DNA of 52,228 nt from Candidatus Omnitrophota bacterium. Its GTDB lineage: Bacteria; Omnitrophota; Gorgyraeia; Gygaellales; Profunditerraquicolaceae. The position numbers were made by a program, and so were the translations under genes. Location of the stretch: the NCBI GenBank assembly GCA_028718245.1, contig JAQUME010000002.1, forward strand, positions 1 to 52,228, read 5' to 3'. The notes below the pieces were generated by a model, which worked only from the letters and a program-made list of their open reading frames with translations, ran no database searches and was not told the DNA's origin. Shown here piece after piece: positions 9,993 through 22,894 of this stretch (within the stretch, counting starts at the first letter, position 1; the number at the start of each line of letters is the position of its first letter).

Positions 9993-11393
9993 TTAATATA
10001 AAGTTTCAATAAGATAACCTCTGCGCCCAGAACAGGGATACCCGCTCTTATCCTTATGGCTATTCAAAAGATCAGTATTGTTTTTTCTTCTAAATCTCTT
10101 CCCGCAATAGCTACACTCATATACATAAGTTATCTGAGAAGCATATAATCCTCCTATGCCAGAAAAAGATGATCTAACTGATCGCCTTCCACCTGAAGAA
10201 GAGAAATATTTGTCTCCATGATGTTCTCCTGCTTTTGATAATTCGACAGGATAACGAGGTGTAAATTTATCCTCAAGGCATTTAATTGAAGAAATCTTAT
10301 TGTTCACAAAACATTTAATTCCGGGACCGCTACTCCTACCTCCAGTTGTATCATAAGCGTAAAAATATTCTTGTCCATAACCATCCTGCCGAATTTTATA
10401 TACTAAAGAATATGGCTCAACAATTCTTTTGACACCATCATAAACTAGCTCTAGAAGACTAAAACTGCTTCCGGATTCCATTATAGGATTTCTTAATTCT
10501 GCTGGAAAATAACCGAAATGGGCAAAGCCCGTAGTGAAACTTCCAAAAAGTTCTTGAACTATTTGCCGGAAATTTATGAGAGCAAGATCGAAATCTATCA
10601 TACTAAATTTAGGACATACAATATATTGATTCCATATTCCTCTAAACACTTCTAGAGGCAGATTAAGTAATAGTTCCTTTGCTATTCCGGGACTTGGTTC
10701 ATAAATTGTTTTCTTTAGAAAAGTGGTGACGATTTCCGGTCTATTGACAGCAATGTCTCTATTAATGAATATAGAATAAATTAAATCATACAAATCATAT
10801 GAGTAACGCCTTTGAAGCAAACATTTTAGCTTAGTCGCTAATATTTCTTCTAACTTGATGCACCTTAAAAGTACACTACAATCAGAAGAGTCAGAATAGG
10901 GGTGTATTAAGAGCTTCTCTTGAACGGGCAAATAGATTTTATCAAGTTGTGTGATATCTAATCTTATCTTTATAATAATAGAATCCGGATTTCCATAAAA
11001 GTCTTTAAAGTATAATCTTACTTTAAATATTTTTCTCTCCTCGTCTCTCCCCCGAATCCCTATTAGAGATTCTTCATCAATTCTATTTTTATTTTTATCA
11101 AACTCTATTCTGCTCTTCTCTTGGACAAAATCACATATCTTATCTAGCTCGCTATGCAACAAATCAAATTGTAATTCACTTTCGGTTGTAAAATCTAAAT
11201 CATCAGAAAAACGAGTATGCACAAGATAAGCTTTCCGTAAGCAGTTCCCTCCCTTAAGAACCAGGGTATCTTTCAGTTTACTTGCAGAATATAGTCCAGA
11301 CAGAAACCAACCAAAGACATAATCTCGTTCTACATTAGCAACATTTATACCTAATTCTGTTGCCTTTTGTCCAATTTCATTCTTATCTATCAT
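9993..11393 (-). CDS. AbiEii/AbiGii-family nucleotidyltransferase fused to a C-terminal beta-rich (WYL-like?) region and a C2HC zinc motif
   Basis: N-terminal ERDYVFGWFL...LVLKGGNCLRKAYLVHTRFSDDLDF is the hallmark of DUF1814/AbiEii NTases. There is an extra roughly 170 aa: RIVEPYSLVYKIRQDGYGQEYFYAYD...IKCFVNNKISSIKCLEDKF, then YECSYCGKRFRRKNNTDLLNSHKDKSGYPC. Confidence 0.65.
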   Translation of the reverse strand: MIDKNEIGQKATELGINVANVERDYVFGWFLSGLYSASKLKDTLVLKGGNCLRKAYLVHTRFSDDLDFTTESELQFDLLHSELDKICDFVQEKSRIEFDKNKNRIDEESLIGIRGRDEERKIFKVRLYFKDFYGNPDSIIIKIRLDITQLDKIYLPVQEKLLIHPYSDSSDCSVLLRCIKLEEILATKLKCLLQRRYSYDLYDLIYSIFINRDIAVNRPEIVTTFLKKTIYEPSPGIAKELLLNLPLEVFRGIWNQYIVCPKFSMIDFDLALINFRQIVQELFGSFTTGFAHFGYFPAELRNPIMESGSSFSLLELVYDGVKRIVEPYSLVYKIRQDGYGQEYFYAYDTTGGRSSGPGIKCFVNNKISSIKCLEDKFTPRYPVELSKAGEHHGDKYFSSSGGRRSVRSSFSGIGGLYASQITYVYECSYCGKRFRRKNNTDLLNSHKDKSGYPCSGRRGYLIETLY

Positions 11394-11447: not shown

Positions 11448-12485
11448 CTAAGATATAGTTGCTACAATTACTCTCTTTACTAAATTTAGCAATTGTTTAA
11501 TTTCATTAGCATCCAAATGGACTTCTTGACCAGCAGTCTGCCAAGTAGATACTTGGTCTTTAAATTTTTCATCTACTAATCCTAGATTATGTGTAATAAC
11601 ATGTCTCTTTGCGAATTGATACTCTAGGAAAGTCTTATCCTTATCATCTATACTTGAAAAAATGTCTAGTTGCAAATTTGCTTTAAAGATTTGTTCTGCT
11701 TTAGATGGCTGTTGGAAAGAATTCCTTAATTTGCTTAATTTATCTTTACGATCATCCTCGCTAACCTTTCCCTTTAATTTATCGGCATATATTATTTTAA
11801 AGAAACCTTCAAATAGACTCACGCAATCCTCCAAGCTGTTACCTAAAAGATGATAGCCAGCTTCCTTGCCTGCCTTATTCACAATGGCATCATAACAATC
11901 GATTAGACTCATTATAATATCTACACTCTTATCCAGATGAAGTGCTAGATTTCCTTCACCGCAGAACGGGCAGTGCATCGAGATTCCATAGACCGCATAT
12001 CTTCTCCCACACCTATCGCAATCTATGATCCGTTTTAACTCATTTTCGGCATAGTGCCTAACGCTAGGAAGCGAACCTGGCTTATACTGTAAACTGATAC
12101 TAATAAAACCCTTGTTAGAAGACGGTGTACTGGATTTAAAAGTATCTCCAAGCATATCTTGAATCGTCTTCGCCACGTCTCTATATATCATTGATTCTAC
12201 CCACTCCGACTGACCCTTAGTGATAAATTGCTGAAAGCCATCTTTATAGCCACAATAAGGACAATATAAATATTCGAGTGACGTTTCTTCTTGGTTAGGT
12301 TCTACCTGTTTTTCGGTTTCAGGTTTATGGGAGGCTATTTTGAAATATTTTGGCTGGCACTCATCTTGATGACATTCACGGCCAACCATCCCATCTTCAT
12401 CTGGTGACAAAGGTATAACAAGCTTATCATGTCCTTCAGGAGTCTTGCCCTTATGGTACTTTTCCATATCATGCCACATATCCAT
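11448..12485 (-). CDS. Zinc-ribbon protein with C-terminal HEPN-like domain (Rx4H)
   Basis: CxxC pairs YCPYCGYKD and CDRCGRRY...CPFCGEGN. The C-terminal helical domain contains FAKRHVITHNLG (R-x4-H). The ATG at 12485 has an AAGGA SD 5 nt upstream. The track ORF extends to 12566. Confidence 0.55.
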   Translation of the reverse strand: MDMWHDMEKYHKGKTPEGHDKLVIPLSPDEDGMVGRECHQDECQPKYFKIASHKPETEKQVEPNQEETSLEYLYCPYCGYKDGFQQFITKGQSEWVESMIYRDVAKTIQDMLGDTFKSSTPSSNKGFISISLQYKPGSLPSVRHYAENELKRIIDCDRCGRRYAVYGISMHCPFCGEGNLALHLDKSVDIIMSLIDCYDAIVNKAGKEAGYHLLGNSLEDCVSLFEGFFKIIYADKLKGKVSEDDRKDKLSKLRNSFQQPSKAEQIFKANLQLDIFSSIDDKDKTFLEYQFAKRHVITHNLGLVDEKFKDQVSTWQTAGQEVHLDANEIKQLLNLVKRVIVATIS

Positions 12486-12510
12486 ATTTGTCCTTATTTC
12501 CTTAACGTTC

Positions 12511-12657
12511 TTATCGCGTTTCTTTTTCTTCTTTGTTCCATTCACACAATATCTTAAAAAATCCATTCAAATTATAACAGATCGCTTGATATTCCTCTTC
12601 GCTTATCTGTACACCATAAAACTCACCCCACTGTTCGATTTGTTCCTTTTTAGCCAT
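12511..12657 (-). CDS. Possible 48-aa small ORF translationally coupled to the RmuC-like gene
   Basis: Its ATG sits in ATGGCTAA, which overlaps the upstream stop codon. Translation: MAKKEQIEQWGEFYGVQISEEEYQAICYNLNGFFKILCEWNKEEKETR. It ends 25 nt before the 12485 start and is below the ORF-track length cutoff. Confidence 0.3.
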   Translation of the reverse strand: MAKKEQIEQWGEFYGVQISEEEYQAICYNLNGFFKILCEWNKEEKETR

Positions 12658-13993
12658 TTTCATTCTCATAGAGTGGAAGTCCTTTTAGGTCTTTCTGTAA
12701 AGTGACTGGGAATGCAATGCCTTTTGCTTCGGCCTCTTTCTGAATTTTATCATTATCAGACTCGAGATCCTTGTTGAGAATCTGTTTAGAGCGTCTCTCC
12801 TGGGGAGGATTTAGCTTTTCCGATTTTTCAAACTCAATTACCTTATCGAGTATTTCTTTAGGAAGATCAGCTTTACATTTAGTAAGAATATCGAGAAATT
12901 CCCAAGTAAAGAAATGATCAATTTGAATTCTTCGTTTTGTCATGTGAGCAAATTTACCAATTATACGACAGATATTTTCCCGTTCCTCTGGATTGAGCTG
13001 ATTAACAAATTCATAATCTTCTATTTTCTTAAGAGTAAGTATCAATGGCTCCAGCACATCTATGGTCACTATATAAACATTGTAATCGGCCATATTGTAA
13101 CTGAATGATTTGATAACTTGCACTGTATTAGATGGTATGACAAGGTAGATATCCCTGCGAACATTTTCTTCCTTAATATACTTCCTTATCGATTCAGTCT
13201 GAGCCTTAATATAATCAGGAAAATTATCAAGATTTTCCGAAGAAGGACTTTTGGCATCGAAAATGATATATTCATCACATAGCTTAATGGTATTATCAGG
13301 ATTACCTTTAAATGGAACCTTCTCAACATACTCGATAGTATGCTTATCACATATCATTTTGACAGTTTGCTTAACACTTTCTTGATGCTTTAACCAAGTT
13401 TCCTTCATTGACTCAATACGTAAAATCTCACTTTTCTGTCGCTCTTCTTGTTCTTTTTGACGATCAGTCTGGATTTCAGTTCTTATAGCATTAAGGCCTG
13501 CTACATCATTCTCATATTTTATCTTTCGATCCGACTCTGTCTGTTTAAAAACAATATTTTCTTTCCTGAGCTGCTCAACATTATTAGTCAGTTGCGCTAC
13601 CTGTTCTTTGACCAAGATGGATTCTTTATCTTGGTCAATTATCTTTTTTTCGGAAGACCTTATCTTCTCATCTTTCGCAGCAACTGAAGATTTAAGTCCG
13701 GATATCTCTTGTGCTGCCCTATCAAGCTCCTTATTTACATTCTCCAGAGAACTCTCTAACTTGCTTTTTTCTAATTTGAGATGTCCATTCTCGTTATTCA
13801 AGACTGCAATTGAATTCTTATTCTGCTCTCCTTCTTGAATAATTCGGTCGAGCAAATCTGATATTTTTTTAAATTCTTCATAGGCATCATAGCTTAATTC
13901 TTTCACTGGACGCCATCCGAAAATCCTCTGCCAAAAACCTAAACTCTTAATTTTTTCAAAAAATAAGCTAAGTTTTTCAGTTTTTGTATCCAT
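12650..13993 (-). CDS. RmuC-like coiled-coil nuclease-domain protein
   Basis: Long N-terminal coiled coil. C-terminal PDNTIKLCDEYIIFDAKSP...RKYIKEENVRRDIYLVIPSN matches the RmuC PD-(D/E)xK core pattern. Strong SD AAGGAGG lies upstream. Confidence 0.55.
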   Translation of the reverse strand: MDTKTEKLSLFFEKIKSLGFWQRIFGWRPVKELSYDAYEEFKKISDLLDRIIQEGEQNKNSIAVLNNENGHLKLEKSKLESSLENVNKELDRAAQEISGLKSSVAAKDEKIRSSEKKIIDQDKESILVKEQVAQLTNNVEQLRKENIVFKQTESDRKIKYENDVAGLNAIRTEIQTDRQKEQEERQKSEILRIESMKETWLKHQESVKQTVKMICDKHTIEYVEKVPFKGNPDNTIKLCDEYIIFDAKSPSSENLDNFPDYIKAQTESIRKYIKEENVRRDIYLVIPSNTVQVIKSFSYNMADYNVYIVTIDVLEPLILTLKKIEDYEFVNQLNPEERENICRIIGKFAHMTKRRIQIDHFFTWEFLDILTKCKADLPKEILDKVIEFEKSEKLNPPQERRSKQILNKDLESDNDKIQKEAEAKGIAFPVTLQKDLKGLPLYENENG

Positions 13994-14019: not shown

Positions 14020-14064
14020 ACAAAAAACCCTCGCTTGGGCATACTTGCCTATAGCGAAGGTTTT
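14020..14064 (-). terminator. Rho-independent terminator after the DUF2779 gene
   Basis: Arms AACCCTCGCT (14026..14035) and AGCGAAGGTT (14053..14062) with one mismatch. On the minus strand the hairpin is followed by TTTTTTG (A-run 14022..14027 on plus). Confidence 0.6.
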
Positions 14065-14164
14065 ACTTTTTTAACGTCCGGGACTTCCCCCTTCAAACAC
14101 GGGACTTACCAAATTGTTATATAAAGATTAACACTTTTTACCTTAAAGTCAAGCGAAATGATGC

Positions 14165-15649
14165 CTAGGCCGCTATTAGTTCTTTTAGTTTTTCACCAAT
14201 CCAAACCATGCCCTTTGTATCTAAGCAGCAATACTTTTCCAATTCTTTTCTTGTTTTTGCCTTCTCTTCATCAGAAACTTTCCCGAAAGTAACATTCAAA
14301 TATGATATACTGGCAACCTGCCCATCAGATATTTCCATATCTTTATAACCTTTACCAGTTATTGCTGGTAGAACTGCCTTGATAGAAGCGCTTCCCTTCT
14401 GTTCAGAATTATAATATTGGAAGTCTTGAAAAGGAGCGAATAAATCCACGATTCTTCCCACTATGCTATCGATCTCTGCCTTATGTTCAGGAAATGCCTC
14501 AGCAAGTTCTCTTAGTCTTGTCTTTTCAAAAGACGAATAAACAACCACGCTTCCCTTATCCCCCAAGACACTAATTAATGAAGTAACTAGTTTCTTCCTC
14601 GGATCATCAATGCCATCAGCGAGAAAAGAACGATGTTCAATTTCACCATCTTTATCTTTTACTATATGTATAGAGAATTGGAAAGGAATCTGCTGATATG
14701 GTTTTGTGCCATCGAATCTTGGAATAGCAGTCATATAACTCTCAAAATCTAGATAATACAGAGGATATAGTAATGAATTAATAAAATTTTTAATGTCTTC
14801 TTTTGAAATATGCACGGAATTGGTTAAAACACATTTCTTCTGAATAAGCTGTTTCTCGGTTAGCTTAAAACCATCCGGGATATCCTTAATTTCACATATA
14901 CCCCGTGCAAATAGCTCAAAGGATTTCTTGCCTCCACGAGTTAATTCAAAAACATTATTTATGGGTAGAAATTCCCAACAGTGGCCCTTCAAAAGACATT
15001 CATCTGGATCTTTGCAATGCTGACTTATAGTGATTTTAGGACATTCTTTTTCATGAATGATTTTTACCATTTCTTCAATTTCTTTTTGGATATTCTCTGT
15101 ATCAATATTGACATTGGCAGTTATATCTTCTATCTTAAACATTCCATGAGGATCAAGTCCTCCTTGCCGTACATATCCGTTATTGATATAAGCGATGCAA
15201 CATTTCCTAATTTTTAAACCTGCTCGTTCACAGCAAAATTTCTGAAAAGAAATTTCAGCAATGTAATGAGATTTTATATCTGTTGCATTTTTTATATCAA
15301 TAATGTCCCACAAATCATTATCTACTGGCTTTAGAATATCTATCTGAGAATATATATTATCAACTAAAATACCTGCCCCAAATATCAACTTACGCTGTTT
15401 TATGAAAGCCCTTGTTTGCTCAATATGGCTTGCGAAGTCTTCAATAGGGACTTCTATCCCTCCTGGATACAATTGCTGAACTAGCTCACCAACTAATTTT
15501 CTCTCATTAATTCTATATCCAGCAACAATGTCGGGTTCTGGAATTAGTTTAGGGGATCCAAAAGTAACCCATAGATACTTTGGGCACTGCAAGCCATGCA
15601 TATACTTTCTTTTAGTAAGAAGTTTATCTATTTTCATTCCGATTTTCAA
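14165..15649 (-). CDS. DUF2779-family protein (Cas4/RecB-like Cys-cluster nuclease N-domain plus exonuclease-like C-domain)
   Basis: N-terminus KRKYMHGLQCPKYLW, Cys cluster HCKDPDECLLKGHCW, and the motif YYLDFESYMTAIPRFDGTKPYQQIPFQFSIH characteristic of DUF2779. 34 nt downstream of the helicase gene. TTG start at 15649 or ATG at 15637. Confidence 0.6.
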   Translation of the reverse strand: MKIGMKIDKLLTKRKYMHGLQCPKYLWVTFGSPKLIPEPDIVAGYRINERKLVGELVQQLYPGGIEVPIEDFASHIEQTRAFIKQRKLIFGAGILVDNIYSQIDILKPVDNDLWDIIDIKNATDIKSHYIAEISFQKFCCERAGLKIRKCCIAYINNGYVRQGGLDPHGMFKIEDITANVNIDTENIQKEIEEMVKIIHEKECPKITISQHCKDPDECLLKGHCWEFLPINNVFELTRGGKKSFELFARGICEIKDIPDGFKLTEKQLIQKKCVLTNSVHISKEDIKNFINSLLYPLYYLDFESYMTAIPRFDGTKPYQQIPFQFSIHIVKDKDGEIEHRSFLADGIDDPRKKLVTSLISVLGDKGSVVVYSSFEKTRLRELAEAFPEHKAEIDSIVGRIVDLFAPFQDFQYYNSEQKGSASIKAVLPAITGKGYKDMEISDGQVASISYLNVTFGKVSDEEKAKTRKELEKYCCLDTKGMVWIGEKLKELIAA

Positions 15650-15682
15650 AAGGGTTTATTTTAAAGTTTATTCCAAATTCTT

Positions 15683-18600
15683 CTAGGTAAACAATTCGTT
15701 TTGCTTTGTTGACAAGTGGATACGGACTCTTTTATTCGTCTCATATTCTTCTATCATTCCGAGACGCTTCATGTCTGTAAGTACACGCATAACCCTTTTA
15801 CGTAGTTTTTCACGATTACGCCCTCGACAAGCATATCCAAGATCTCTCAACACTCTATCTGCAATCAAATCTTTTCCTTGACTGCCATCTTTTAATAATG
15901 TTCGAACTGCATCAAAAATCTCTTTACGTTTTCCCCCATAAATTAACCCTTCCCTCTCTTCAGCATATGATAGAGCTGCCGATAATCTATCTTCTTCATT
16001 TATTTTTATCGCTTCCTCTTCCTGTAATGGCTCAACTGACTCAGAGATCAGGTGAGCTTGACCATCTTCAATAGTCTTTGGGTCTTCTACTACAACGGAT
16101 TCTGGCTCAAGCTTTCGATCAGAAGGAAATATTCCCATCTCATCCAAAACTTGCCATAATGGTTCAAGCGCCTGCTCGGGTTCTCTATAAAAAGCACTCC
16201 CCCTAATTCTCCAAAACCGCCACCCCGATCTTTCAAGTATTCGCTGTCGCCATTGATCGTGCTCATATTGTTCAGGACCATGCCATTCGTCTCCATCGCA
16301 TTCTATTGCGAGTCGTTTCGTTGTTCCTTCGACTACAAGATCTATTCGATGCTCAGCAACTTTAAACTGTGGAATGATTCGGTATTTATGATTGATAAGC
16401 TGTAGAAAAACGTCAACTTCAAACCAACTTTCAAATGGGTCAGGAACGTTACTTCTACTCTTATGGCTATAACCTGAGGCTTTGCGTAATTCTTCAAGGT
16501 CAAAATCGCCCAAGGCTATTGGAGCAGCCAAAGGATTTAAGCAATATGACAACAAAATATGTCGGTAATCACTTGGACTTAAATCATTAAGCGTTGCGGA
16601 GTAAAAGAGCCAAATCTGATCTCGTGCACGGCTAAATGCTACATTAAATCTTCTTTTGTCTGTTTCTCTGGCTAAGGCACCAATTCTATCGTTTGGAGCG
16701 GCAACAAGGCTTAAAAATATAACATCCCTCTCATCTCCTTGAAATGCATAAGGATCACCACAAATAAGGTTTCTACGTTCTATTTCCTCGGTACCGATTT
16801 TATCAATTAACATGCTCTTTATTAACTGATCTTGTGCATGTCCTTGTAAAACAATAACACCCATGCTTTTACCTTTATATAACTTATCGTTACAGCACTT
16901 AACGATCTGATCAACTACCCTGACAGCTTCAACCTTATTAATAACTAACTGCCCATAACCTTCCTTATAGCCATCCTTAACGTATACTGCTTTTATAGGC
17001 TCTAATCTTTGCGGTGGAGCAGAACGAAGAGGAATAAGGCTAGCACCTAATGGCACATAACATAAATTATTAGAAAATTGAATTATCTCAGGCACGCATC
17101 TAAAATGCTCTTTTAAGAATATCTGCGCTTTATAGCGAATTTTGGCATGTGTAAAAAGACTACTCTGAAGACCATAGGTTTGCCTTAAGGGAATATCTTG
17201 AAGGAATCTTTCAATCAATAAATCAACTTCCTTCGGATCTAAACCAACATCTTCTGGGCTAATCTGTTGATCGTCTCCTACTATTATACATTTCTTAGCT
17301 ATATAAAATAAGGCGATGGCTTCTGGACCAGATTGGCTAGCTTCATCGACAATTACAACATCAAAAATTTCTTTATCAGGCTTTATTGACTCAACAACCC
17401 TATAAAGAGGCATTATCCATGCAGGTATCGCACCTCTACACTCTTCCATATATCCCGCTGCTTCTCTTCGATACTTTTCAGCATGCTTACCCGTTCCTTT
17501 ACCTATTTTACGAATTGCATGACTCCAAGCCACAAGATTTTGCCGTTGAGTCTCGGTCAAGCTAGATAAACAATTATTCCAAGCTTTTTCAGAAGCTAAT
17601 TCTGCCATTGTCTTTCTTAGTTTTTTATCAATGTCTTGGTAATCGTGCTGTAATTGATACTCATCGTGGGATTCTTCAAATTCCCTAATCCAAGCGTCAG
17701 CCCTAAGCCAATCCCATGCTTTTTCAAATTCAGTAGCATATTTATCAAACTTATTATCGAAAGGATTATCGTGAATCGAATCAGCTAATATAGGCGCTTT
17801 TTCCTTTAAGCGTTTAATTAAATCAACACAAGTGCCCAACTGTAAATGATCACTTTCTAAATGGTTAAGAATCTCATATGTTTTACTCCAGCGATTCCAA
17901 TCTCGAGCTTCAATTGCTTCCAATAAATCATTATTTAAAGGATGGGAATCAGAATTGGGGATTAAAGCTTTAAGAGAAACCTTAATCTTCTCCATTCCCT
18001 GCTCAATCACTATTAACTTATCTACAATAAATGTTCCTTCTAGCGCTTTAATTAAATTTATAACTTGAGTTTCATCATGCCACGATGGCTCATGTATCAC
18101 GCAAATCTCAGAAACAATTTGTTTTGTTTTACGAAGCGGCTCTTCAAGTGATAAAACTACATCCAAAGCTTCAATCTGTTCAAGGTACATAGCAACGCGG
18201 GCAACGGCTGAACCTTGCATAATCTCAATCTTTTCTTTCCAAATATCATTCAATTTCCTTAAATTTGTTTCCACGTCAATGTAATTAATAAGTTTTCCAA
18301 GACAATCCGTATTATCACAATACCTACCATTAACTAAAATAGAGGTTAATAAATATTTTATTTTAGAATAGATTTTCGGTCTAACTATCCACCACCCTAA
18401 TCCTTTACCACCATCTAAATGTTTTTTGAGATCTTCTGCATCAGCTTTAATTTTTTGTAGATCCAAATCTTTTGGTATAGAAAAATTATTTTTATCGGCT
18501 AATTCTGCTGTATTCTTCAATTCACTTAAATAAGATTTTGTAGCAGAAGCTAATAACTTAAGCGGCTCATCCTGATCACCTAAAATTGCACAAACACTAT

Positions 18601-20587
18601 CTTTTAGCCATTTAAGAGGACGCCGACACGCGTCCGCCTTTGCCCTATCTAATTGCCTTAATACGTTCAAAAGCTCCTGCCGCTTACTTTGTTCGCAGTT
18701 TTTTAATTTTTCGTATATGGCTCGTATATGGATGTCGTTTTCTAATAGTTTTGCATCTTGCTTAAAATCTTCCTCTTTTTCAACAATCTCTATAAATTCT
18801 TCTGGTGTAAAAATGGCAGAAATCGGAATTCTTTTTAATTGTAGCTCTTGCCTTCTTTCATTATGAAATTTTCTGTAAAGCTCAAGCAAGAGCATAAAAT
18901 CACGATTACTTAATGGACATATGTCTTCTGAATTAATTGTATCAGTGATCCATCCATATTGTTCATCTTCTTGACTCAAAATTGTGCCTATTTCTTGCGC
19001 TGTCCCATTAAACTTACCATCAATAATAGAATGTTTAAAAGTTTCTTTTTCTCTTAATTCTGTTAAAGAAACTTTGATTCCCTGTAATTCTTGCTTACAC
19101 TGATCCAACTTCTTCTCTAATCTAGATATTGTTTCCTTGCTTTCTTTATAATCCCAAGTATTATTCTTACTAGTAATTTCATGAACTGAACCAATTAAAC
19201 TATCCAAGTCCTTCTGACTTCTACCTAAAACACTTACACACAATGATTGAACTTGAGCCGGGATTTTGTCTTTTAATACTTTCAGTGCTCTGGGAGTTTG
19301 ACTAGTTACTAATACTCTCTTCCCCGAGGCCAATAAATGGCAAATTAAGTTAGCTATAGTATGACTTTTTCCTGTACCCGGTGGCCCCTGGACCACAACT
19401 CCATTACGCCTCTCTATATCCTCAGCAATCCTAAGTTGTTCTTCATTGTAGAATAAAGGGAAATAAACTTGACTTGGTAACTTAAAGGACGGCTCTTCGC
19501 CACTTACCTCTAATGTTTGGCCGCTTTGTAAATTTCTTTTTTCTTCTGTAGTTAATAAAGAATGGACTGGCGGAGGCAAAGTTTCATCTCCAGAATCATG
19601 AAGTTGTTCTATGATGCTACCAATAAATTTAAGAATGCCAACTTGAGTACGTTCCCGCAAAATAAGAGCTGGCGTAAAGAAAACTTCTGGCCTTTCTCTT
19701 GAATTTGCTCCTTCTGCAGCCTCAAACGATTCATTGTATTGAGCGTTAGGATTAAATGAATTAGTCCAGCTCTTAATTAAGGAATGTATTTTCGTCTTAT
19801 CCCAAATATCATTCCCAATATTTTTTGCTTCTATTTCCAAATTTCTAATTATTTCAACTTGGGGCTGATCGTCAAAATCAAGCATTTCAGTCTCAAGCTG
19901 TAAGTTGGCCCCTTCGGAATTTGCTTTAATAACCAAAGTTCCCCTATTTGGCTCAAACACTAACTCAATCTGAGCTGATAAAATATGCCTGTTTATAACT
20001 AGCCCTTTTTTTGTTTGAAAATTTAATAACCCAAGAGCTATAACTACTTCATATGATTCTCCGAGAGCTTTTTGCTGCTGATAAATGGAGAACAATCGTG
20101 TATAAATATTATGTACTTTCTTCAATTCCAGACATTCCTCTGCCCATGGCTTCCATTTTGTCTCGAGATACTCCTTCCAAATCTTAACGATCTCTGGACA
20201 ATTAACCAATTCAATATAAGAAAGTTCACCGTTAAGAGGAAGCTTCTCTGCCTGCTTAACTATCTTTTCCTTTAGAATTGGTTCTTCCTCGTAGTTACTT
20301 AAAGTATTCAAATCTACCCATTCATAGCACTCTTTTGACACAAGAGGGACCTTAGGAAATACTGGCCGCCTTATTTCGATCCAAATATCGGTCTCTTCCT
20401 TTTCTAAATCCCAAACAGAACAGTTAGTTAAGCGATGGCGCGGTATCTCATAAAGCCATATTTTATCTTTATAAGACTTTAAATCAGTAACAATACTTGT
20501 ACGAAGCCGTACTAAATTTTGTAAATATTGATATAAGGATATCGCTTTCTTATTCAATTCTTTGTTTGCGCTAGTGTTCTGTGTCAC
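15683..20587 (-). CDS. Giant SF1 (Upf1/DNA2-like) helicase fused to a Vsr/DUF559-type endonuclease domain (Hhe/Mokosh-II/Nhi-like architecture)
   Basis: 1634 aa. Motifs: I GPPGTGKSH, II VIVDEASQ, III IVGDDQQISP, V FQGDERDVIFLSLV, VI FNVAFSRARDQIWLF. Downstream nuclease core HRIDLVVEG..KRLAIECDGDEWHG. Long N-terminal region and a roughly 150-aa C-terminal tail. Confidence 0.8.
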   Translation of the reverse strand: MTQNTSANKELNKKAISLYQYLQNLVRLRTSIVTDLKSYKDKIWLYEIPRHRLTNCSVWDLEKEETDIWIEIRRPVFPKVPLVSKECYEWVDLNTLSNYEEEPILKEKIVKQAEKLPLNGELSYIELVNCPEIVKIWKEYLETKWKPWAEECLELKKVHNIYTRLFSIYQQQKALGESYEVVIALGLLNFQTKKGLVINRHILSAQIELVFEPNRGTLVIKANSEGANLQLETEMLDFDDQPQVEIIRNLEIEAKNIGNDIWDKTKIHSLIKSWTNSFNPNAQYNESFEAAEGANSRERPEVFFTPALILRERTQVGILKFIGSIIEQLHDSGDETLPPPVHSLLTTEEKRNLQSGQTLEVSGEEPSFKLPSQVYFPLFYNEEQLRIAEDIERRNGVVVQGPPGTGKSHTIANLICHLLASGKRVLVTSQTPRALKVLKDKIPAQVQSLCVSVLGRSQKDLDSLIGSVHEITSKNNTWDYKESKETISRLEKKLDQCKQELQGIKVSLTELREKETFKHSIIDGKFNGTAQEIGTILSQEDEQYGWITDTINSEDICPLSNRDFMLLLELYRKFHNERRQELQLKRIPISAIFTPEEFIEIVEKEEDFKQDAKLLENDIHIRAIYEKLKNCEQSKRQELLNVLRQLDRAKADACRRPLKWLKDSVCAILGDQDEPLKLLASATKSYLSELKNTAELADKNNFSIPKDLDLQKIKADAEDLKKHLDGGKGLGWWIVRPKIYSKIKYLLTSILVNGRYCDNTDCLGKLINYIDVETNLRKLNDIWKEKIEIMQGSAVARVAMYLEQIEALDVVLSLEEPLRKTKQIVSEICVIHEPSWHDETQVINLIKALEGTFIVDKLIVIEQGMEKIKVSLKALIPNSDSHPLNNDLLEAIEARDWNRWSKTYEILNHLESDHLQLGTCVDLIKRLKEKAPILADSIHDNPFDNKFDKYATEFEKAWDWLRADAWIREFEESHDEYQLQHDYQDIDKKLRKTMAELASEKAWNNCLSSLTETQRQNLVAWSHAIRKIGKGTGKHAEKYRREAAGYMEECRGAIPAWIMPLYRVVESIKPDKEIFDVVIVDEASQSGPEAIALFYIAKKCIIVGDDQQISPEDVGLDPKEVDLLIERFLQDIPLRQTYGLQSSLFTHAKIRYKAQIFLKEHFRCVPEIIQFSNNLCYVPLGASLIPLRSAPPQRLEPIKAVYVKDGYKEGYGQLVINKVEAVRVVDQIVKCCNDKLYKGKSMGVIVLQGHAQDQLIKSMLIDKIGTEEIERRNLICGDPYAFQGDERDVIFLSLVAAPNDRIGALARETDKRRFNVAFSRARDQIWLFYSATLNDLSPSDYRHILLSYCLNPLAAPIALGDFDLEELRKASGYSHKSRSNVPDPFESWFEVDVFLQLINHKYRIIPQFKVAEHRIDLVVEGTTKRLAIECDGDEWHGPEQYEHDQWRQRILERSGWRFWRIRGSAFYREPEQALEPLWQVLDEMGIFPSDRKLEPESVVVEDPKTIEDGQAHLISESVEPLQEEEAIKINEEDRLSAALSYAEEREGLIYGGKRKEIFDAVRTLLKDGSQGKDLIADRVLRDLGYACRGRNREKLRKRVMRVLTDMKRLGMIEEYETNKRVRIHLSTKQNELFT

Positions 20588-20620
20588 CGTATACCTCTTT
20601 TAATTAATACGTTGTACATG

Positions 20621-20824
20621 TTAATCTTCTAAAAAGAATCCCGGGGTTTTCTTAAGTACTTTAGCTATCTTTACCAATGTTTCAATTGAAGGCATTGAAA
20701 TGCCATTCTCGTAGCGGGAGATACTCTTCTGTTTCGCCCCTATCTTCTTGGCCAGCTCGCTTTGATTTAAATCAAACACAACCCTAGCAACTTTGATCCT
20801 CTTACCTAGCTTTTTAGCATCCAT
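20621..20824 (-). CDS. XRE-family HTH regulator heading the helicase operon
   Basis: HTH LNQSELAKKIGAKQKSISRYENG. The ATG at 20824 is preceded by AGGAGG with a 4-nt spacer. The track ORF start at 20851 would overlap the divergent -35 box. Confidence 0.8.
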   Translation of the reverse strand: MDAKKLGKRIKVARVVFDLNQSELAKKIGAKQKSISRYENGISMPSIETLVKIAKVLKKTPGFFLED

Positions 20825-20844
20825 TTTACCTCCTAAAATAATAC

Positions 20845-20872
20845 TTGACAAATATACCTTTTAGGGTATAAT
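20845..20872 (+). promoter_or_regulatory. Near-consensus sigma-70 promoter driving the recombinase operon
   Basis: TTGACA (20845..20850), 16-nt spacer, TATAAT (20867..20872). Confidence 0.6.
20853..20870. promoter_or_regulatory. Operator-like palindrome TATACC-N6-GGTATA inside the promoter spacer
   Basis: 6-bp perfect inverted arms between the -35 and -10 boxes. An extra TATACC half-site lies at 20920..20925. The site is in the divergent region next to the XRE gene. Confidence 0.45.
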
Positions 20873-20928
20873 TTAGTCACTACAGGAATATTGAGATTTT
20901 ATACTACTAAAGGCTAATATATACCTAT

Positions 20929-21138
20929 TTGGCAATAAAATCAAGCCCTATGGCTAACTTAAGCGTAACTGAAATTAAGCATAGTATCAACAAAGAAGAA
21001 CGCTTTTATCTCTGCTGGAAAGATTCTCTTCCGATTCAGCACTTACTAGATGCAATCTCTTCTATTTTAGCCAAAGAGTACATCGAGGTAGCCAAACAGA
21101 ACCCTGATGTGTTTCTTAAGCAAGGAGCCACAAAATGA
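20929..21138 (+). CDS. Small hypothetical ORF overlapping the recombinase start (possible accessory or directionality factor)
   Basis: 69 aa from TTG 20929 (ATG at 20950). Its stop overlaps the recombinase ATG (ATGA). No recognisable motif. Confidence 0.35.
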   Translation: MAIKSSPMANLSVTEIKHSINKEERFYLCWKDSLPIQHLLDAISSILAKEYIEVAKQNPDVFLKQGATK

Positions 21139-22859
21139 AAGCGGCTATATACGCACGATATTCTTCTGAAAATCAAAGCGAAAAAAGCATCGATGATCAA
21201 ATTAGGGTATGCAAAAACTACTGCAAAGACCACGACATCACTATCTGCGATGAGCATACCTATATTGATGAAGCCCTATCCGGTTCCCTGCTTAACCGTC
21301 CTGGGCTTCAAGCCTTAGATAAAGCTGCTGAAAATAAGGAATTTGAAGCTGTGGTCGTTGATGACCTCTCTCGTCTCTCAAGAAGTAACCACCAGATGCT
21401 TACATTAGTGCTTAAATTCAATTATTACCAGGTCAAATTGATTTCAGTATCTGATGGCATAGTTACTGATGATGAAAACTCTAAATTAGGCATCCAAATG
21501 CGTGGGTTAATAAATGAGCTATATCTGGATGATCTAGGAAAGAAAACTATGCGCGGTTTAGAAGGTCAAAAACTGCGTGGCTTTAGTGCTGGAGAGAATG
21601 TATATGGTTATTGTAGTAAGCCGGTTGGTGAATTACGGCTAGATAAAAGAGGTAAAGCCAAATACGAAGGCAAAGTTCATAAGATAAATCCCGAAGAAGC
21701 TGAAGTTATCCGAAGAATATTCAATGAATTCACTAATGGAAATAGTATCCATAAAATAGCTACAAAGCTAAATGAAGAGAAAATTCCGACAAAAAAGCTT
21801 ATGCATGGTGGTTGGAACATATCAACCGTCTCTAGAATACTAAAAAATGAAAAGTATATAGGCAAATGGGATTGGAGAAAATACAAAAACGTTCGTGATC
21901 CTATGACCGGCAAGAAAAAAGTTATCCCCCGTCCAACCAAAGACCTAATTCCTATATATCGGGAAGACTTAGTGATAATCAATAAAGAAACCTGGGAAAA
22001 AGCACAAAAACGATGGCAAGAACTTAAGGGAACGTGGCCTGTTAGCAAAAAGAAAAAGACCTTTTATCAACAAAAAAGCTACGTTCATACTAGCCCTAAT
22101 CACTTGTTTTCCGGACTGATGAAATGCAAAACCTGCGGCGGAGCTATTGTTCTTATAAGCGGTAAAGGTACTGGTTATTACGGTTGCTACAACGCTAGGC
22201 GTAAGACCTGTACAAATACACTCGCTATACCACGTAAAAGAATTGAAGAAATCATTATTAATGAACTTAAAGATAAGATATTAACTGCTGATAATTTGGA
22301 ATATGTATATAAGAACGTTGAAAAACTATCTGCGGAAGGATTTAATGAAGTTCCGGAGCTGGTTAAGAAGAAAAGGGCTCAATACGATAAAATACAGCAG
22401 GAAATACAGAATTACCTCAATTTTATTAAGGTTGGCAATCTTTCAAAGGCAGTATCTGAAGCCTTAACTGAAGCGGAAAAAAGAAATGAGGAATTAACAG
22501 CAGAAATAGGATCCTTAGAGTTCCAAAAAGATAATAGCTTTAAGGCACCGCCTAAAGAATGGATAAACCACAGACTGGAAAACCTACGCGAGACTTTAAA
22601 CAAAAATACCGTCTCCTCTTCTTTGGCGCTTAAAGAACTGCTTGCGCCTATAAGCTTGGAGCCGGTATTAACTAGAGAATCTGATTTTTATCAGCTTTTT
22701 GGGGGGAATGAGAAGGAATTTAAGCCTTATTACGTCGCCCATACCAAAATTCGAACCTTAGCGCTCCTAGATGAGGAGCAAAAAGGTTCGAATTGGTATC
22801 AATGGCGGAGAGGCTGGGATTCGAACCCAGGGACCCAGTTGCCCAGGTCAACTCATTAG
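21135..22859 (+). CDS. Large serine recombinase (integrase)
   Basis: N-terminal resolvase domain AAIYARYSSENQ (catalytic Ser context), a recombinase domain, the zinc ribbon CKTCGGAIVLISGKGTGYYGCYNARRKTC and a coiled-coil segment. The ORF has no stop inside the island and ends 57 nt inside tRNA-Ser(GCT). Confidence 0.9.
   Translation: MKAAIYARYSSENQSEKSIDDQIRVCKNYCKDHDITICDEHTYIDEALSGSLLNRPGLQALDKAAENKEFEAVVVDDLSRLSRSNHQMLTLVLKFNYYQVKLISVSDGIVTDDENSKLGIQMRGLINELYLDDLGKKTMRGLEGQKLRGFSAGENVYGYCSKPVGELRLDKRGKAKYEGKVHKINPEEAEVIRRIFNEFTNGNSIHKIATKLNEEKIPTKKLMHGGWNISTVSRILKNEKYIGKWDWRKYKNVRDPMTGKKKVIPRPTKDLIPIYREDLVIINKETWEKAQKRWQELKGTWPVSKKKKTFYQQKSYVHTSPNHLFSGLMKCKTCGGAIVLISGKGTGYYGCYNARRKTCTNTLAIPRKRIEEIIINELKDKILTADNLEYVYKNVEKLSAEGFNEVPELVKKKRAQYDKIQQEIQNYLNFIKVGNLSKAVSEALTEAEKRNEELTAEIGSLEFQKDNSFKAPPKEWINHRLENLRETLNKNTVSSSLALKELLAPISLEPVLTRESDFYQLFGGNEKEFKPYYVAHTKIRTLALLDEEQKGSNWYQWRRGWDSNPGTQLPRSTH
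22741..22799. repeat. Imperfect 59-bp palindrome / compound stem-loop just downstream of tRNA-Ser(GCT)
   Basis: ATACCAAAATTCGAACC ... GGTTCGAATTGGTAT, with a 2-nt bulge in the left arm. There is a nested inner hairpin GCTCCT-agatg-AGGAGC. The right arm ends 3 nt from the tRNA 3' CCA. Confidence 0.7.
22748..22757. repeat. Right copy of 10-bp direct repeat AATTCGAACC (proposed attR core)
   Basis: Identical to 4582..4591. It lies inside the recombinase ORF (codons K-I-R-T) and forms part of the left arm of the palindrome at 22741..22799. Confidence 0.6.
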
Positions 22860-22894
22860 CAGTGAGTTGCTTTCGACCACTCAGCCACCTCTCC
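22803..22894 (-). tRNA. tRNA-Ser (anticodon GCT), CCA encoded
   Basis: Reverse complement: GGAGAGG acceptor, anticodon arm ACTCA-CTGCTAA-TGAGT, long variable arm, T-arm CTGGGTTCGAATCCCAG, CCTCTCC-G-CCA. Confidence 0.9.

Follow-up and report, generated by a model that had tools for sequence, protein, structure and literature searches.

Hhe is a single-chain defence protein that combines a helicase with a nuclease. Activity has been reported against the phages lambda, T3, T7 and PhiV-1, and the Vsr mutation E1731A abolishes it (10.1101/2022.06.16.496414). Hhe is placed in SF1_Upf1 (SF1, helicase superfamily 1) in 10.1101/2024.02.29.582594, a HEPN domain is listed for Gao_Hhe (10.1101/2024.10.26.620412), and the MTES_1575 architecture has been given as HEPN-transglutaminase-SF1-Vsr-winged helix-turn-helix (wHTH) (PMC3710099). 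Here we analyse a stretch of 52,228 nucleotides (nt) from a Candidatus Omnitrophota bacterium (assembly GCA_028718245.1, contig JAQUME010000002.1, positions 1 to 52,228; hereafter the window). It contains a mobile defence island of 18 kb, at whose integrase end lie, in a row, the genes for an XRE regulator, a giant helicase-nuclease (helicase A) and a DUF2779 nuclease. A preliminary description, made from the letters of the sequence, had considered these genes a discrete three-gene unit and possibly a new system. It appears rather, with a probability that we put at about 0.55, that they form a row of separable modules sharing one transcript, in which the partnership of helicase and DUF2779 is facultative and exchangeable and does not constitute a fixed two-gene system.

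With Hhe, helicase A shares the single polypeptide of ~1,600-1,900 amino acids (aa), the order of an Upf1-type SF1 helicase followed by a Vsr/MTES_1575 domain, and the occurrence in mobile defence islands. However, only the second helicase lobe and the nuclease align. The NCBIfam model of Hhe (NF042953) yields 126.4 bits, over residues 978-1511 only, against an equivalog cut-off of 2000, and the PADLOC model (PDLC02194) matches residues 1055-1498 (1.6e-31). Neither DUF4011 (PF13195, no match at E<=1) nor HEPN (no Pfam match, no conserved Rx4-6H motif in the alignment columns) was found in helicase A, and its N-terminal 370 residues form another domain. The best-scoring named family is ProA/PDC-S37, with which the motor and Vsr core align over residues ~340-1600, but again the scores stay low: 208 bits for NCBIfam ProA (NF058533, cut-off 1500) and 196 bits (2.4e-58) for PADLOC PDC-S37, over residues 384-1509 only. 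A true member, helicase B of the sister island L146, scores 1612 bits over its full length with PDC-S37 and 1462 bits with ProA. It fills the same slot as helicase A, but the two cores are only 25% identical and the N-terminus of helicase A is left uncovered. Because the full-length scores miss the cut-offs widely and the N-terminus differs, helicase A is best placed outside both families, while it would work as Hhe and ProA do, a single polypeptide carrying both the motor and the Vsr nuclease. No paper on ProA or PDC-S37 was found in the literature collection searched.

The resemblance to Hhe that had been suggested earlier therefore holds for the architecture and not for family membership, and the looser comparisons with Mokosh and Nhi hold only in that both are SF1 helicase-based defence systems. 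The PADLOC models MkoC, which is among the best matches of helicase A together with PDC-S37 and Hhe, and MkoA match the second helicase lobe, but Mokosh needs a PLD nuclease and no PLD domain was detected by Pfam or PADLOC in helicase A or in its neighbours in the window. Nhi is a UvrD-type SF1A helicase with an N-terminal nuclease, whereas helicase A resembles the Upf1-like SF1B enzymes, and no Nhi model was among the PADLOC matches. Hachiman (HamAB), a helicase with a separate nuclease, offers a works-like comparison only, as a possible model for the use of a trailing nuclease: in 10.1101/2024.02.29.582594 HamB surveys DNA and frees its nuclease upon detecting damage. Yet HamB is of the SF2 Ski2-type and the HamAB pair is obligate and conserved, whereas helicase A has a nuclease of its own and the second one is optional. 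A large, uncatalogued family with the Hhe/ProA motor-nuclease core and its own N-terminal domain is missed by the present thresholds of defence-finding programs, and adding it would improve the annotation of defence islands in uncultured lineages.

Cassette exchange within one island family

The three genes lie in a low-GC block (~4.5-23 kb of the window, ~33-40% GC vs ~50% outside, i.e. ~15 points lower) that ends at a large serine recombinase and a tRNA-Ser(GCT), and that also carries Septu, AbiEii-like and TIR genes. Related islands were recognised by their recombinase, which is 92% (L146), 85% (L081), 76% (L139) and 71% (L134) identical to that of the window. When the window is compared with L146 by blastn, only the helicase open reading frame (ORF) and its two spacers (15640-20620) have been replaced; in the comparison with L081 only the DUF2779 ORF (14160-15682) has. 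The breakpoints lie within spacers of 30-45 nt, and two of the exchanges brought in an analogue that has the same architecture as the gene it replaced. Three combinations are consequently found at one position: helicase A with DUF2779, helicase A with a TM0106-type nuclease, and the PDC-S37 helicase B with DUF2779. In L134, DUF2779 directly follows the XRE gene, and in L139 four unrelated genes follow it, then DUF2779 and then a CBASS operon. These islands provide a natural example of cassette exchange, in which the recombinase-XRE backbone is kept and the cargo is swapped gene by gene, sometimes for analogues. The cassette in the XRE slot of L139 (3507-6747, genome G123) is itself unusual; it encodes a 190-aa ORF and methyltransferase-like, nucleoside 2-deoxyribosyltransferase-like and 4-HFC-P-synthase-like proteins, followed by DUF2779, a Zn-ribbon/HTH_17 protein and the CBASS genes (HNH-SAVED, CD-NTase, E1/E2).

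The XRE gene stays with the recombinase. It is 65-82% identical beside the same recombinase family carrying different cargo (L146 78%, L081 76%, L139 80%, L134 65%), and together with a small ORF and the recombinase it forms a continuous DNA block that L146, L139 and L134 share at 68-84% identity (blastn), irrespective of the sequence behind the XRE stop codon. By contrast, the helicase relatives in L082, L083 and L084 have regulators unrelated to the XRE of the window, or none; the regulator of L082 is unrelated although the helicase is 80% identical. Since the XRE-recombinase block is constant while the genes behind it vary, the XRE gene is a backbone gene of the island that reads into the first cargo slot, and the helicase and DUF2779 genes are cargo. 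A helicase-specific regulator, as had been assumed when the locus was said to have "its own" XRE gene, can be ruled out. In several sister islands a leader RNA motif (see below) lies directly after the XRE gene and before the first cargo (L193 1241-1307, L194 12351-12422, L207 565-637 and L082 489-567); in the window the XRE gene runs into the helicase gene without such a motif in between.

A search of 301 relatives located the recombinase in 26 genomes. Twelve further islands (recombinase 65-94% identical) were compared over 5-14 kb of cargo. The XRE gene was present in nine of these and a helicase-Vsr gene occupied the first slot in three (G238, G272, G244), whereas no DUF2779, TM0106-type gene or RmuC was found within the 5-14 kb of cargo of any of the twelve. 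The idea that DUF2779 itself is a backbone gene is weakened by its absence from these islands. Most of the sister islands are metagenome contigs related to each other, and the counts are small and not independent.

Within the window, three intact, co-oriented ORFs on the minus strand (20621-20851, 15683-20587 and 14165-15649) fill positions 14165-20851. The XRE start is most likely the in-frame ATG at 20824, which follows AGGAGG and gives the 67 aa found in all homologues, and the DUF2779 start is probably the ATG at 15637 rather than the TTG at 15649, in agreement with the N-termini of the homologues. The spacers measure 33 nt between XRE and helicase and 33-45 nt between helicase and DUF2779, and a consensus scan of the window showed no terminator-like site between the genes. 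As proposed earlier, the three genes are probably transcribed as one unit.

From the helicase side, the pairing with DUF2779 does not recur. In 80 genome loci from many phyla (32-41% identity to helicase A, 1.44 Mb) tblastn detected neither DUF2779 nor RmuC nor DUF2130, and the only match to a TM0106-type nuclease was a partial one, 2.3 kb upstream in L071. The 69 downstream neighbours in this helicase family are heterogeneous and share no common family, but defence-type domains abound among them (ResIII, AAA_15/21, SLFN, AIPR, T1R). Such a mixture would fit a helicase that acts autonomously as a single gene. The closest relatives are similarly varied. The helicase is followed by DUF2779 (86% identical) in L086 (helicase 90%), by a 501-aa TIGR03491/TM0106 nuclease and then RmuC in L081 and L085 (87-88%), by an ATPase and a PLD protein in L082 (80%), by SLFN in L083 (61%), by a TPR-HNH protein in L084 (57%), and by nothing comparable in L087, L089 and L092 (49-59%). 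A metagenome scan for close helicase relatives produced only one locus, L085.

The picture is no different from the DUF2779 side. Among the 401 genomes of our phylum sample DUF2779 occurs in 33 and a full-length relative of helicase A in two; among the 17 further genomes of this genus that the sample includes, none has the helicase and one has DUF2779. The sample holds ~16 giant MTES_1575 ORFs, and only that of the window adjoins DUF2779. At the 20 phylum loci studied (L124-L143) the commonest neighbour of DUF2779 is an HTH_11-WYL-WCX regulator, located 0-45 nt downstream in 8-9 of them, and a resolvase is nearby in two. Conservation of the pairing is thus ruled out across the helicase family by the 80 loci without DUF2779, and from the other side by the 20 loci that show WYL regulators instead. 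It was observed only within this island family, and is absent at the 80 helicase loci, at ~38 other DUF2779 sites and in the 12 further islands. The claim of a discrete three-gene system is not upheld by these distributions; the accompanying remark, that a helicase-nuclease plus DUF2779 is undescribed as a defence system, remains valid in that no described system pairs both.

The DUF2779-WYL association is tighter and commoner than that of DUF2779 with any helicase, and the same order is present on a Rhodoferax plasmid (L188), where DUF2779 is located between an AAA+ ATPase and a WYL protein. On the Aliarcobacter cryaerophilus plasmid pM830MA (L187, 61471-72937) the genes encode an SbcC-like ATPase, a NACHT/DUF4145 ATPase that overlaps the DUF2779 start by 14 nt, DUF2779, a pair of 779 and 501 aa that looks like a split AAA_11/AAA_12 helicase, and a dGTPase. 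Possibly this is a DUF2779-helicase neighbourhood of independent origin, in a different phylum. The near relatives of the DUF2779 protein have diverse genes before them: DUF5677 in L144 (79% identical), the contig end in L149 (81%), an unannotated 378-aa ORF in L150 (69%) and the 1610-aa PDC-S37/DUF4011 helicase B in L146-148 (77%). They are followed by RmuC and SIMPL (L144), RmuC and SLFN (L149), DUF2130 (L150), or a 34-aa ORF, an HSP70-like gene and RmuC (L146-148). In L144, L146, L149, L150 and L081 the Cas4-exonuclease gene is followed, at a distance of 1-2 genes, by RmuC or DUF2130, which is in every case preceded by the leader motif. The RmuC of L146 matches the PADLOC model "RTasRmuC" (8e-128). 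This position is filled in every near relative with enough sequence; in the window it holds a 447-aa protein that is weakly RmuC-like.

Predicted activities of the two nucleases

The helicase A family comprises at least 6,675 database proteins from many phyla, and the top matches (37-90% identity, in Omnitrophica, Nitrospirae, Acidobacteria, Thermodesulfobacteriota and Hydrogenedentes, among others) are full-length. Pfam recognises AAA_11 (residues 380-502), AAA_12, MTES_1575 (PF18741, 1.9e-30, 105 bits vs a cut-off of 38.2 bits) and DUF559. This agrees with the earlier description of a helicase/Vsr fusion, and all motifs quoted there, those of SF1 as well as IDLVVEG...IECDGDEWHG, were found. 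Across 14 homologues of 37-80% identity, the Walker A, DEAS, GDDQQ and QGDERD motifs do not vary, nor do the Vsr residues (coordinates in Table 1). As the solved proteins nearest to a profile of these homologues are Sen1, Upf1, IGHMBP2 and DNA2, the motor is assigned to the Upf1-like SF1B type.

Of the long uncharacterised N-terminal region and the C-terminal tail that had been noted previously, the former is conserved, and so are the last ~70 residues of the latter. The N-terminal domain (residues 1-372) has no Pfam match at E<=1, no PDB sequence match and no PDB fold match (best Foldseek E 0.36). Its AlphaFold2 model (predicted local distance difference test (pLDDT) 83, predicted template modelling score 0.72) contains beta-sheets, and its alignment by hhalign with the DUF4011 part of helicase B is weak (E 0.012, probability 3.6%). 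The ~550-residue insertion between motifs I and II is matched by no Pfam model, and the tail only weakly (MksE 0.034, HTH_Crp_2 0.54); by analogy with the MTES_1575 architecture the tail possibly adopts a wHTH fold.

The DUF2779 protein (2,975 homologues) was described beforehand as having a Cas4-like cysteine cluster and an exonuclease-like domain, which is in line with the Pfam and PADLOC matches (Table 1), and the quoted motifs CPKY, HCKDPDECLLKGHCW, DFES and PFQFSIH are all present. Two catalytic sets occupy invariant columns in 30 homologues (490-aa numbering): a Cas4-type set (D100, D/E114-x-K116, Q132, Cys18/208/214/220) and a DEDDy set (D297-x-E299, D398, Y469-x3-D473). With Foldseek, the AlphaFold2 model (pLDDT 89) matches the Cas4 structures 8d3l, 7mi4, 4r5q and 4ic1, ACE1 and EXO5 at probability ~1.0, as well as AdnAB, with one half of the protein and, more weakly, RNase H-like folds with the other. 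The protein is therefore predicted to be an active dual nuclease with a Cas4-like and a DEDDy part. In the literature the DUF2779 family has been assigned to an exonuclease clade linked to DUF83 (PMC3985635), and the PF11074 family has been described as Cas4-like plus DEDDh/y, with the quasi-essential JCVI-syn3.0 member MMSYN1_0389 (PMC13621843). That protein shares the Cas4-like PD-(D/E)xK domain and the DEDD(h/y) domain with a tyrosine in Exo III and the acidic residues kept, but it has two Cas4 cysteines where the window protein has four, measures ~650 instead of ~490 aa, and is encoded by a quasi-essential chromosomal gene and not by a gene of a mobile island. In the UU173 subfamily model the window protein scores 69 bits (cut-off 225).

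The TM0106 family (TIGR03491; PDDEXK_1 plus RNase_H_2), which replaces DUF2779 ORF for ORF behind helicase A in L081 and L085, is an analogous fusion of a Cas4-like and an RNase-H-like exonuclease domain. It has no usable sequence similarity to DUF2779 (BLASTP E 0.015) and belongs to another Pfam and NCBIfam family. In PMC3985635 the two families stand next to each other, as F.13 and F.17, and each is grouped with DUF83. The Cas4 part of DUF2779 is a "solo" Cas4-like domain: for 10 island ORFs the PADLOC models, which include Cas proteins, gave no Cas-type match other than Cas4 and one weak WYL match, and Pfam revealed no Cas family in the ORFs scanned with it, CRISPR arrays not having been scanned. 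On viral contigs DUF2779 was seen at only four loci, hence it is not a typical phage gene. DUF2779 domains also lie within open frames of 3,018 aa (G368:C12:29579-29950) and 8,648 aa (G341:C35:18950-19351) in two genomes of the phylum, which may be giant fusions.

Separable modules or a dedicated system

On the reading of separable modules, the XRE gene, as part of a serine-recombinase backbone that integrates at tRNA-Ser, would repress the promoter from which it is itself transcribed, and thereby the cargo, and would read into the first cargo slot. This slot would hold an autonomous single-polypeptide defence gene of the Hhe/ProA/PDC-S37 kind. By comparison with Hhe the helicase would act alone as sensor and effector, translocating 5'-3', its N-terminal domain perhaps being the sensor or regulator, and the loss of defence in the Hhe Vsr mutant suggests that its Vsr/MTES_1575 domain would introduce nicks or cuts into invading DNA when the motor has engaged. 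Where present, DUF2779 could extend the nicks or ends into two-directional degradation, with or without physical contact with the helicase, or it could act on its own. The question raised is thus whether DUF2779 is an optional helper of helicase-type immunity or an independent actor.

Several observations weigh against this reading. The like-for-like replacement in the three helicase/dual-nuclease combinations is what functional constraint would give. A Cas4-exonuclease fusion follows the helicase-Vsr gene in 3 of 5 readable islands and is near the XRE gene in 2 of 11 without such a helicase, a trend that is not significant among related islands and demonstrates no dependence. Furthermore, the putative defence role of the helicase is derived from homology far below the curated cut-offs and from the island context, and to call its N-terminal domain a sensor or regulator is a guess.

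Alternatively, the helicase-Vsr protein and the Cas4-like/DEDDy nuclease, perhaps together with an RmuC-like protein, might form a dedicated cooperative system. The helicase would then recognise the target and open or nick it, the dual nuclease would resect both strands, and the components would be exchanged for analogues under diversifying selection. At one position, three pairings occur among two helicase subfamilies and two Cas4-exonuclease subfamilies, with breakpoints in short spacers; the gaps are 27-45 nt without a terminator between the genes; RmuC or DUF2130 lies at most two genes downstream in five loci; and on the Aliarcobacter plasmid DUF2779 directly precedes the split helicase. 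Nevertheless we think such a system rather improbable, given the 80 helicase loci without an adjacent DUF2779 or RmuC and a phylum sample in which the adjacency occurs in the window only. Close relatives of the helicase precede other genes (L082, L083, L084), the helicase-Vsr genes of G272 and G244 have no such nuclease, and DUF2779 occurs by itself behind the XRE gene in L134 and beside WYL regulators elsewhere. We are equally doubtful about a multi-nuclease defence whose slots are filled by interchangeable analogues (helicase A or B, DUF2779 or a TM0106-type nuclease, and an RmuC-type gene preceded by the shared leader), in which a helicase-Vsr sensor-nickase would be followed by a bidirectional exonuclease (5'-3' by the Cas4-like part, 3'-5' by the DEDDy part) and perhaps by an RmuC-type protein. 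If true, it would represent a modular "helicase plus resection" class of immunity that has not yet been described.

Slightly less improbable, but still unlikely, is a role of DUF2779 (and the RmuC-type gene) in the service of the mobile element itself, where it would act on the DNA ends of the element or drive recombination, possibly also assisting the exchange of cassettes; the helicase would be cargo inserted between the XRE gene and DUF2779. In five related islands (window, L146, L081, L139, L134) a Cas4-exonuclease fusion is among the first cargo genes, and DUF2779 identity roughly tracks that of the recombinase (92% with 77%, 76% with 42%, 71% with 42%). DUF2779 and the leader motif move as one DNA block (blastn), and the quasi-essential JCVI-syn3.0 member points to a role in DNA metabolism (PMC13621843). 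Such a role is difficult to reconcile with the 12 further islands, in whose 5-14 kb of cargo none of the three nuclease types was found, and with the phylum loci, where most DUF2779 genes are not beside a recombinase. That helicase and nuclease are ordinary host repair proteins in a low-GC region seems very improbable. Upf1/DNA2-like helicases and Vsr-like and Cas4/AddB-like nucleases do have relatives in repair, but the patchy occurrence of both genes in the phylum and the genus, and their position in an integrated island beside Septu, AbiE and TIR genes, argue against housekeeping.

A shared leader RNA and the neighbouring genes

A hairpin with a T-run at ~14022-14064, which had been taken for the terminator of the unit, does end it; it is however not a private terminator but part of a shared leader motif that precedes the next gene. 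The segment 14017-14159 recurs at 72-84% identity before different genes, such as RmuC (L146, L081), an HNH-SAVED CBASS effector (L139), the helicase (L082) and others. The ~90-nt leader, 5-60 nt upstream of many accessory genes, has a fixed layout: a -10-like box, a stem P1 (GUCC/GGAC), an invariant loop GUUUGAAGG, a small stem P2, an A-rich linker and a terminator. The invariant 5' arm of the terminator, CCUUC, is complementary to an invariant GAAGG, and pairing of the two could form an antiterminator. In 8 of 48 copies P1 reads GUGG/CCAC instead, and 99.4% of the cells pair; 25 double changes were counted vs 3.5 in shuffles, although pairing is favoured here because the model guided the fitting of the alignment.

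No Rfam match was obtained for the motif. A covariance model detects it in 84 of 151 related genomes and 55 of 97 genera, with 1-6 copies each, and three times in the genome studied here (the window copy, G000:C19:7778-7858 and G000:C4:73-153). Besides the genes named above, it precedes methylases, SIMPL, DUF2130, Cas6, NYN, ORF6N and DUF3857-transglutaminase genes. It is a portable promoter-leader-terminator and may be a riboswitch- or attenuator-like regulator; as it is shared by so many accessory genes, it may represent a lineage-wide regulatory element for mobile cargo.

Table 1. Features of the window around the XRE, helicase A and DUF2779 genes
Feature	Position	Strand	Remarks
Coiled-coil protein, 447 aa, possible RmuC-like PD-(D/E)xK core	12650-13993	-	occupies RmuC/DUF2130 position of sister loci
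Conserved leader RNA motif with intrinsic terminator	14022-14112	-	-10-like TGnTAnnnT upstream, ~14125-14135
DUF2779 dual nuclease (predicted), 490 aa	14165-15637	-	PF11074 8e-44, 149.4 bits vs 23.3 gathering
PF11074 core, RNase H-like DEDDy 3'-5' exonuclease domain	14384-14758	-	
Cas4-like PD-(D/E)xK domain of DUF2779	14975-15592	-	PADLOC Cas4 5.3e-10
Helicase A, 1634 aa, Upf1-like SF1B helicase plus Vsr/MTES_1575 endonuclease (predicted)	15683-20587	-	start GTG 20587
C-terminal tail, residues 1500-1634	15683-16087	-	last ~70 residues conserved
MTES_1575/Vsr-like endonuclease, residues 1389-1481	16145-16423	-	D1416, E1429, D1431, D1433, H1436 invariant
AAA_12 (RecA2), residues 1140-1328	16604-17170	-	Walker B DEAS just upstream, residues 1081-1084
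~550-residue insertion between motifs I and II, residues ~501-1050	17438-19087	-	family-conserved
Walker A GPPGTGKS, residues 401-408	19364-19387	-	invariant in 14 homologues
N-terminal domain, residues 1-372	19472-20587	-	conserved across 21 relatives
XRE/Cro-type helix-turn-helix regulator, 67 aa	20621-20824	-	HTH_3 2.6e-15
Divergent promoter-like region, XRE vs small ORF/recombinase	20823-20951		TTGACA-16-TATAAT 20845-20872 (+); TTGTCA-17-TAAAAT 20851-20823 (-)
Large serine recombinase of the island	21135-22859	+	71-92% identical in sister islands
tRNA-Ser(GCT) beside recombinase	22803-22894		

The promoter boxes in Table 1 stem from a consensus scan whose overall yield was not above chance. 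Behind the leader, the 447-aa protein has no RmuC (PF02646) or PADLOC match, and its nuclease core aligns weakly with a profile of four RmuC sequences (hhalign E 0.006, probability 6%). Further along the island, a 372-aa protein (11448-12566, minus strand) matches the PADLOC candidate PDC-M14A (7e-14), and the AbiEii-like nucleotidyltransferase (9993-11393, minus strand; PADLOC 3e-47) is considerably extended at its C-terminus, where a weak match to WYL was obtained.

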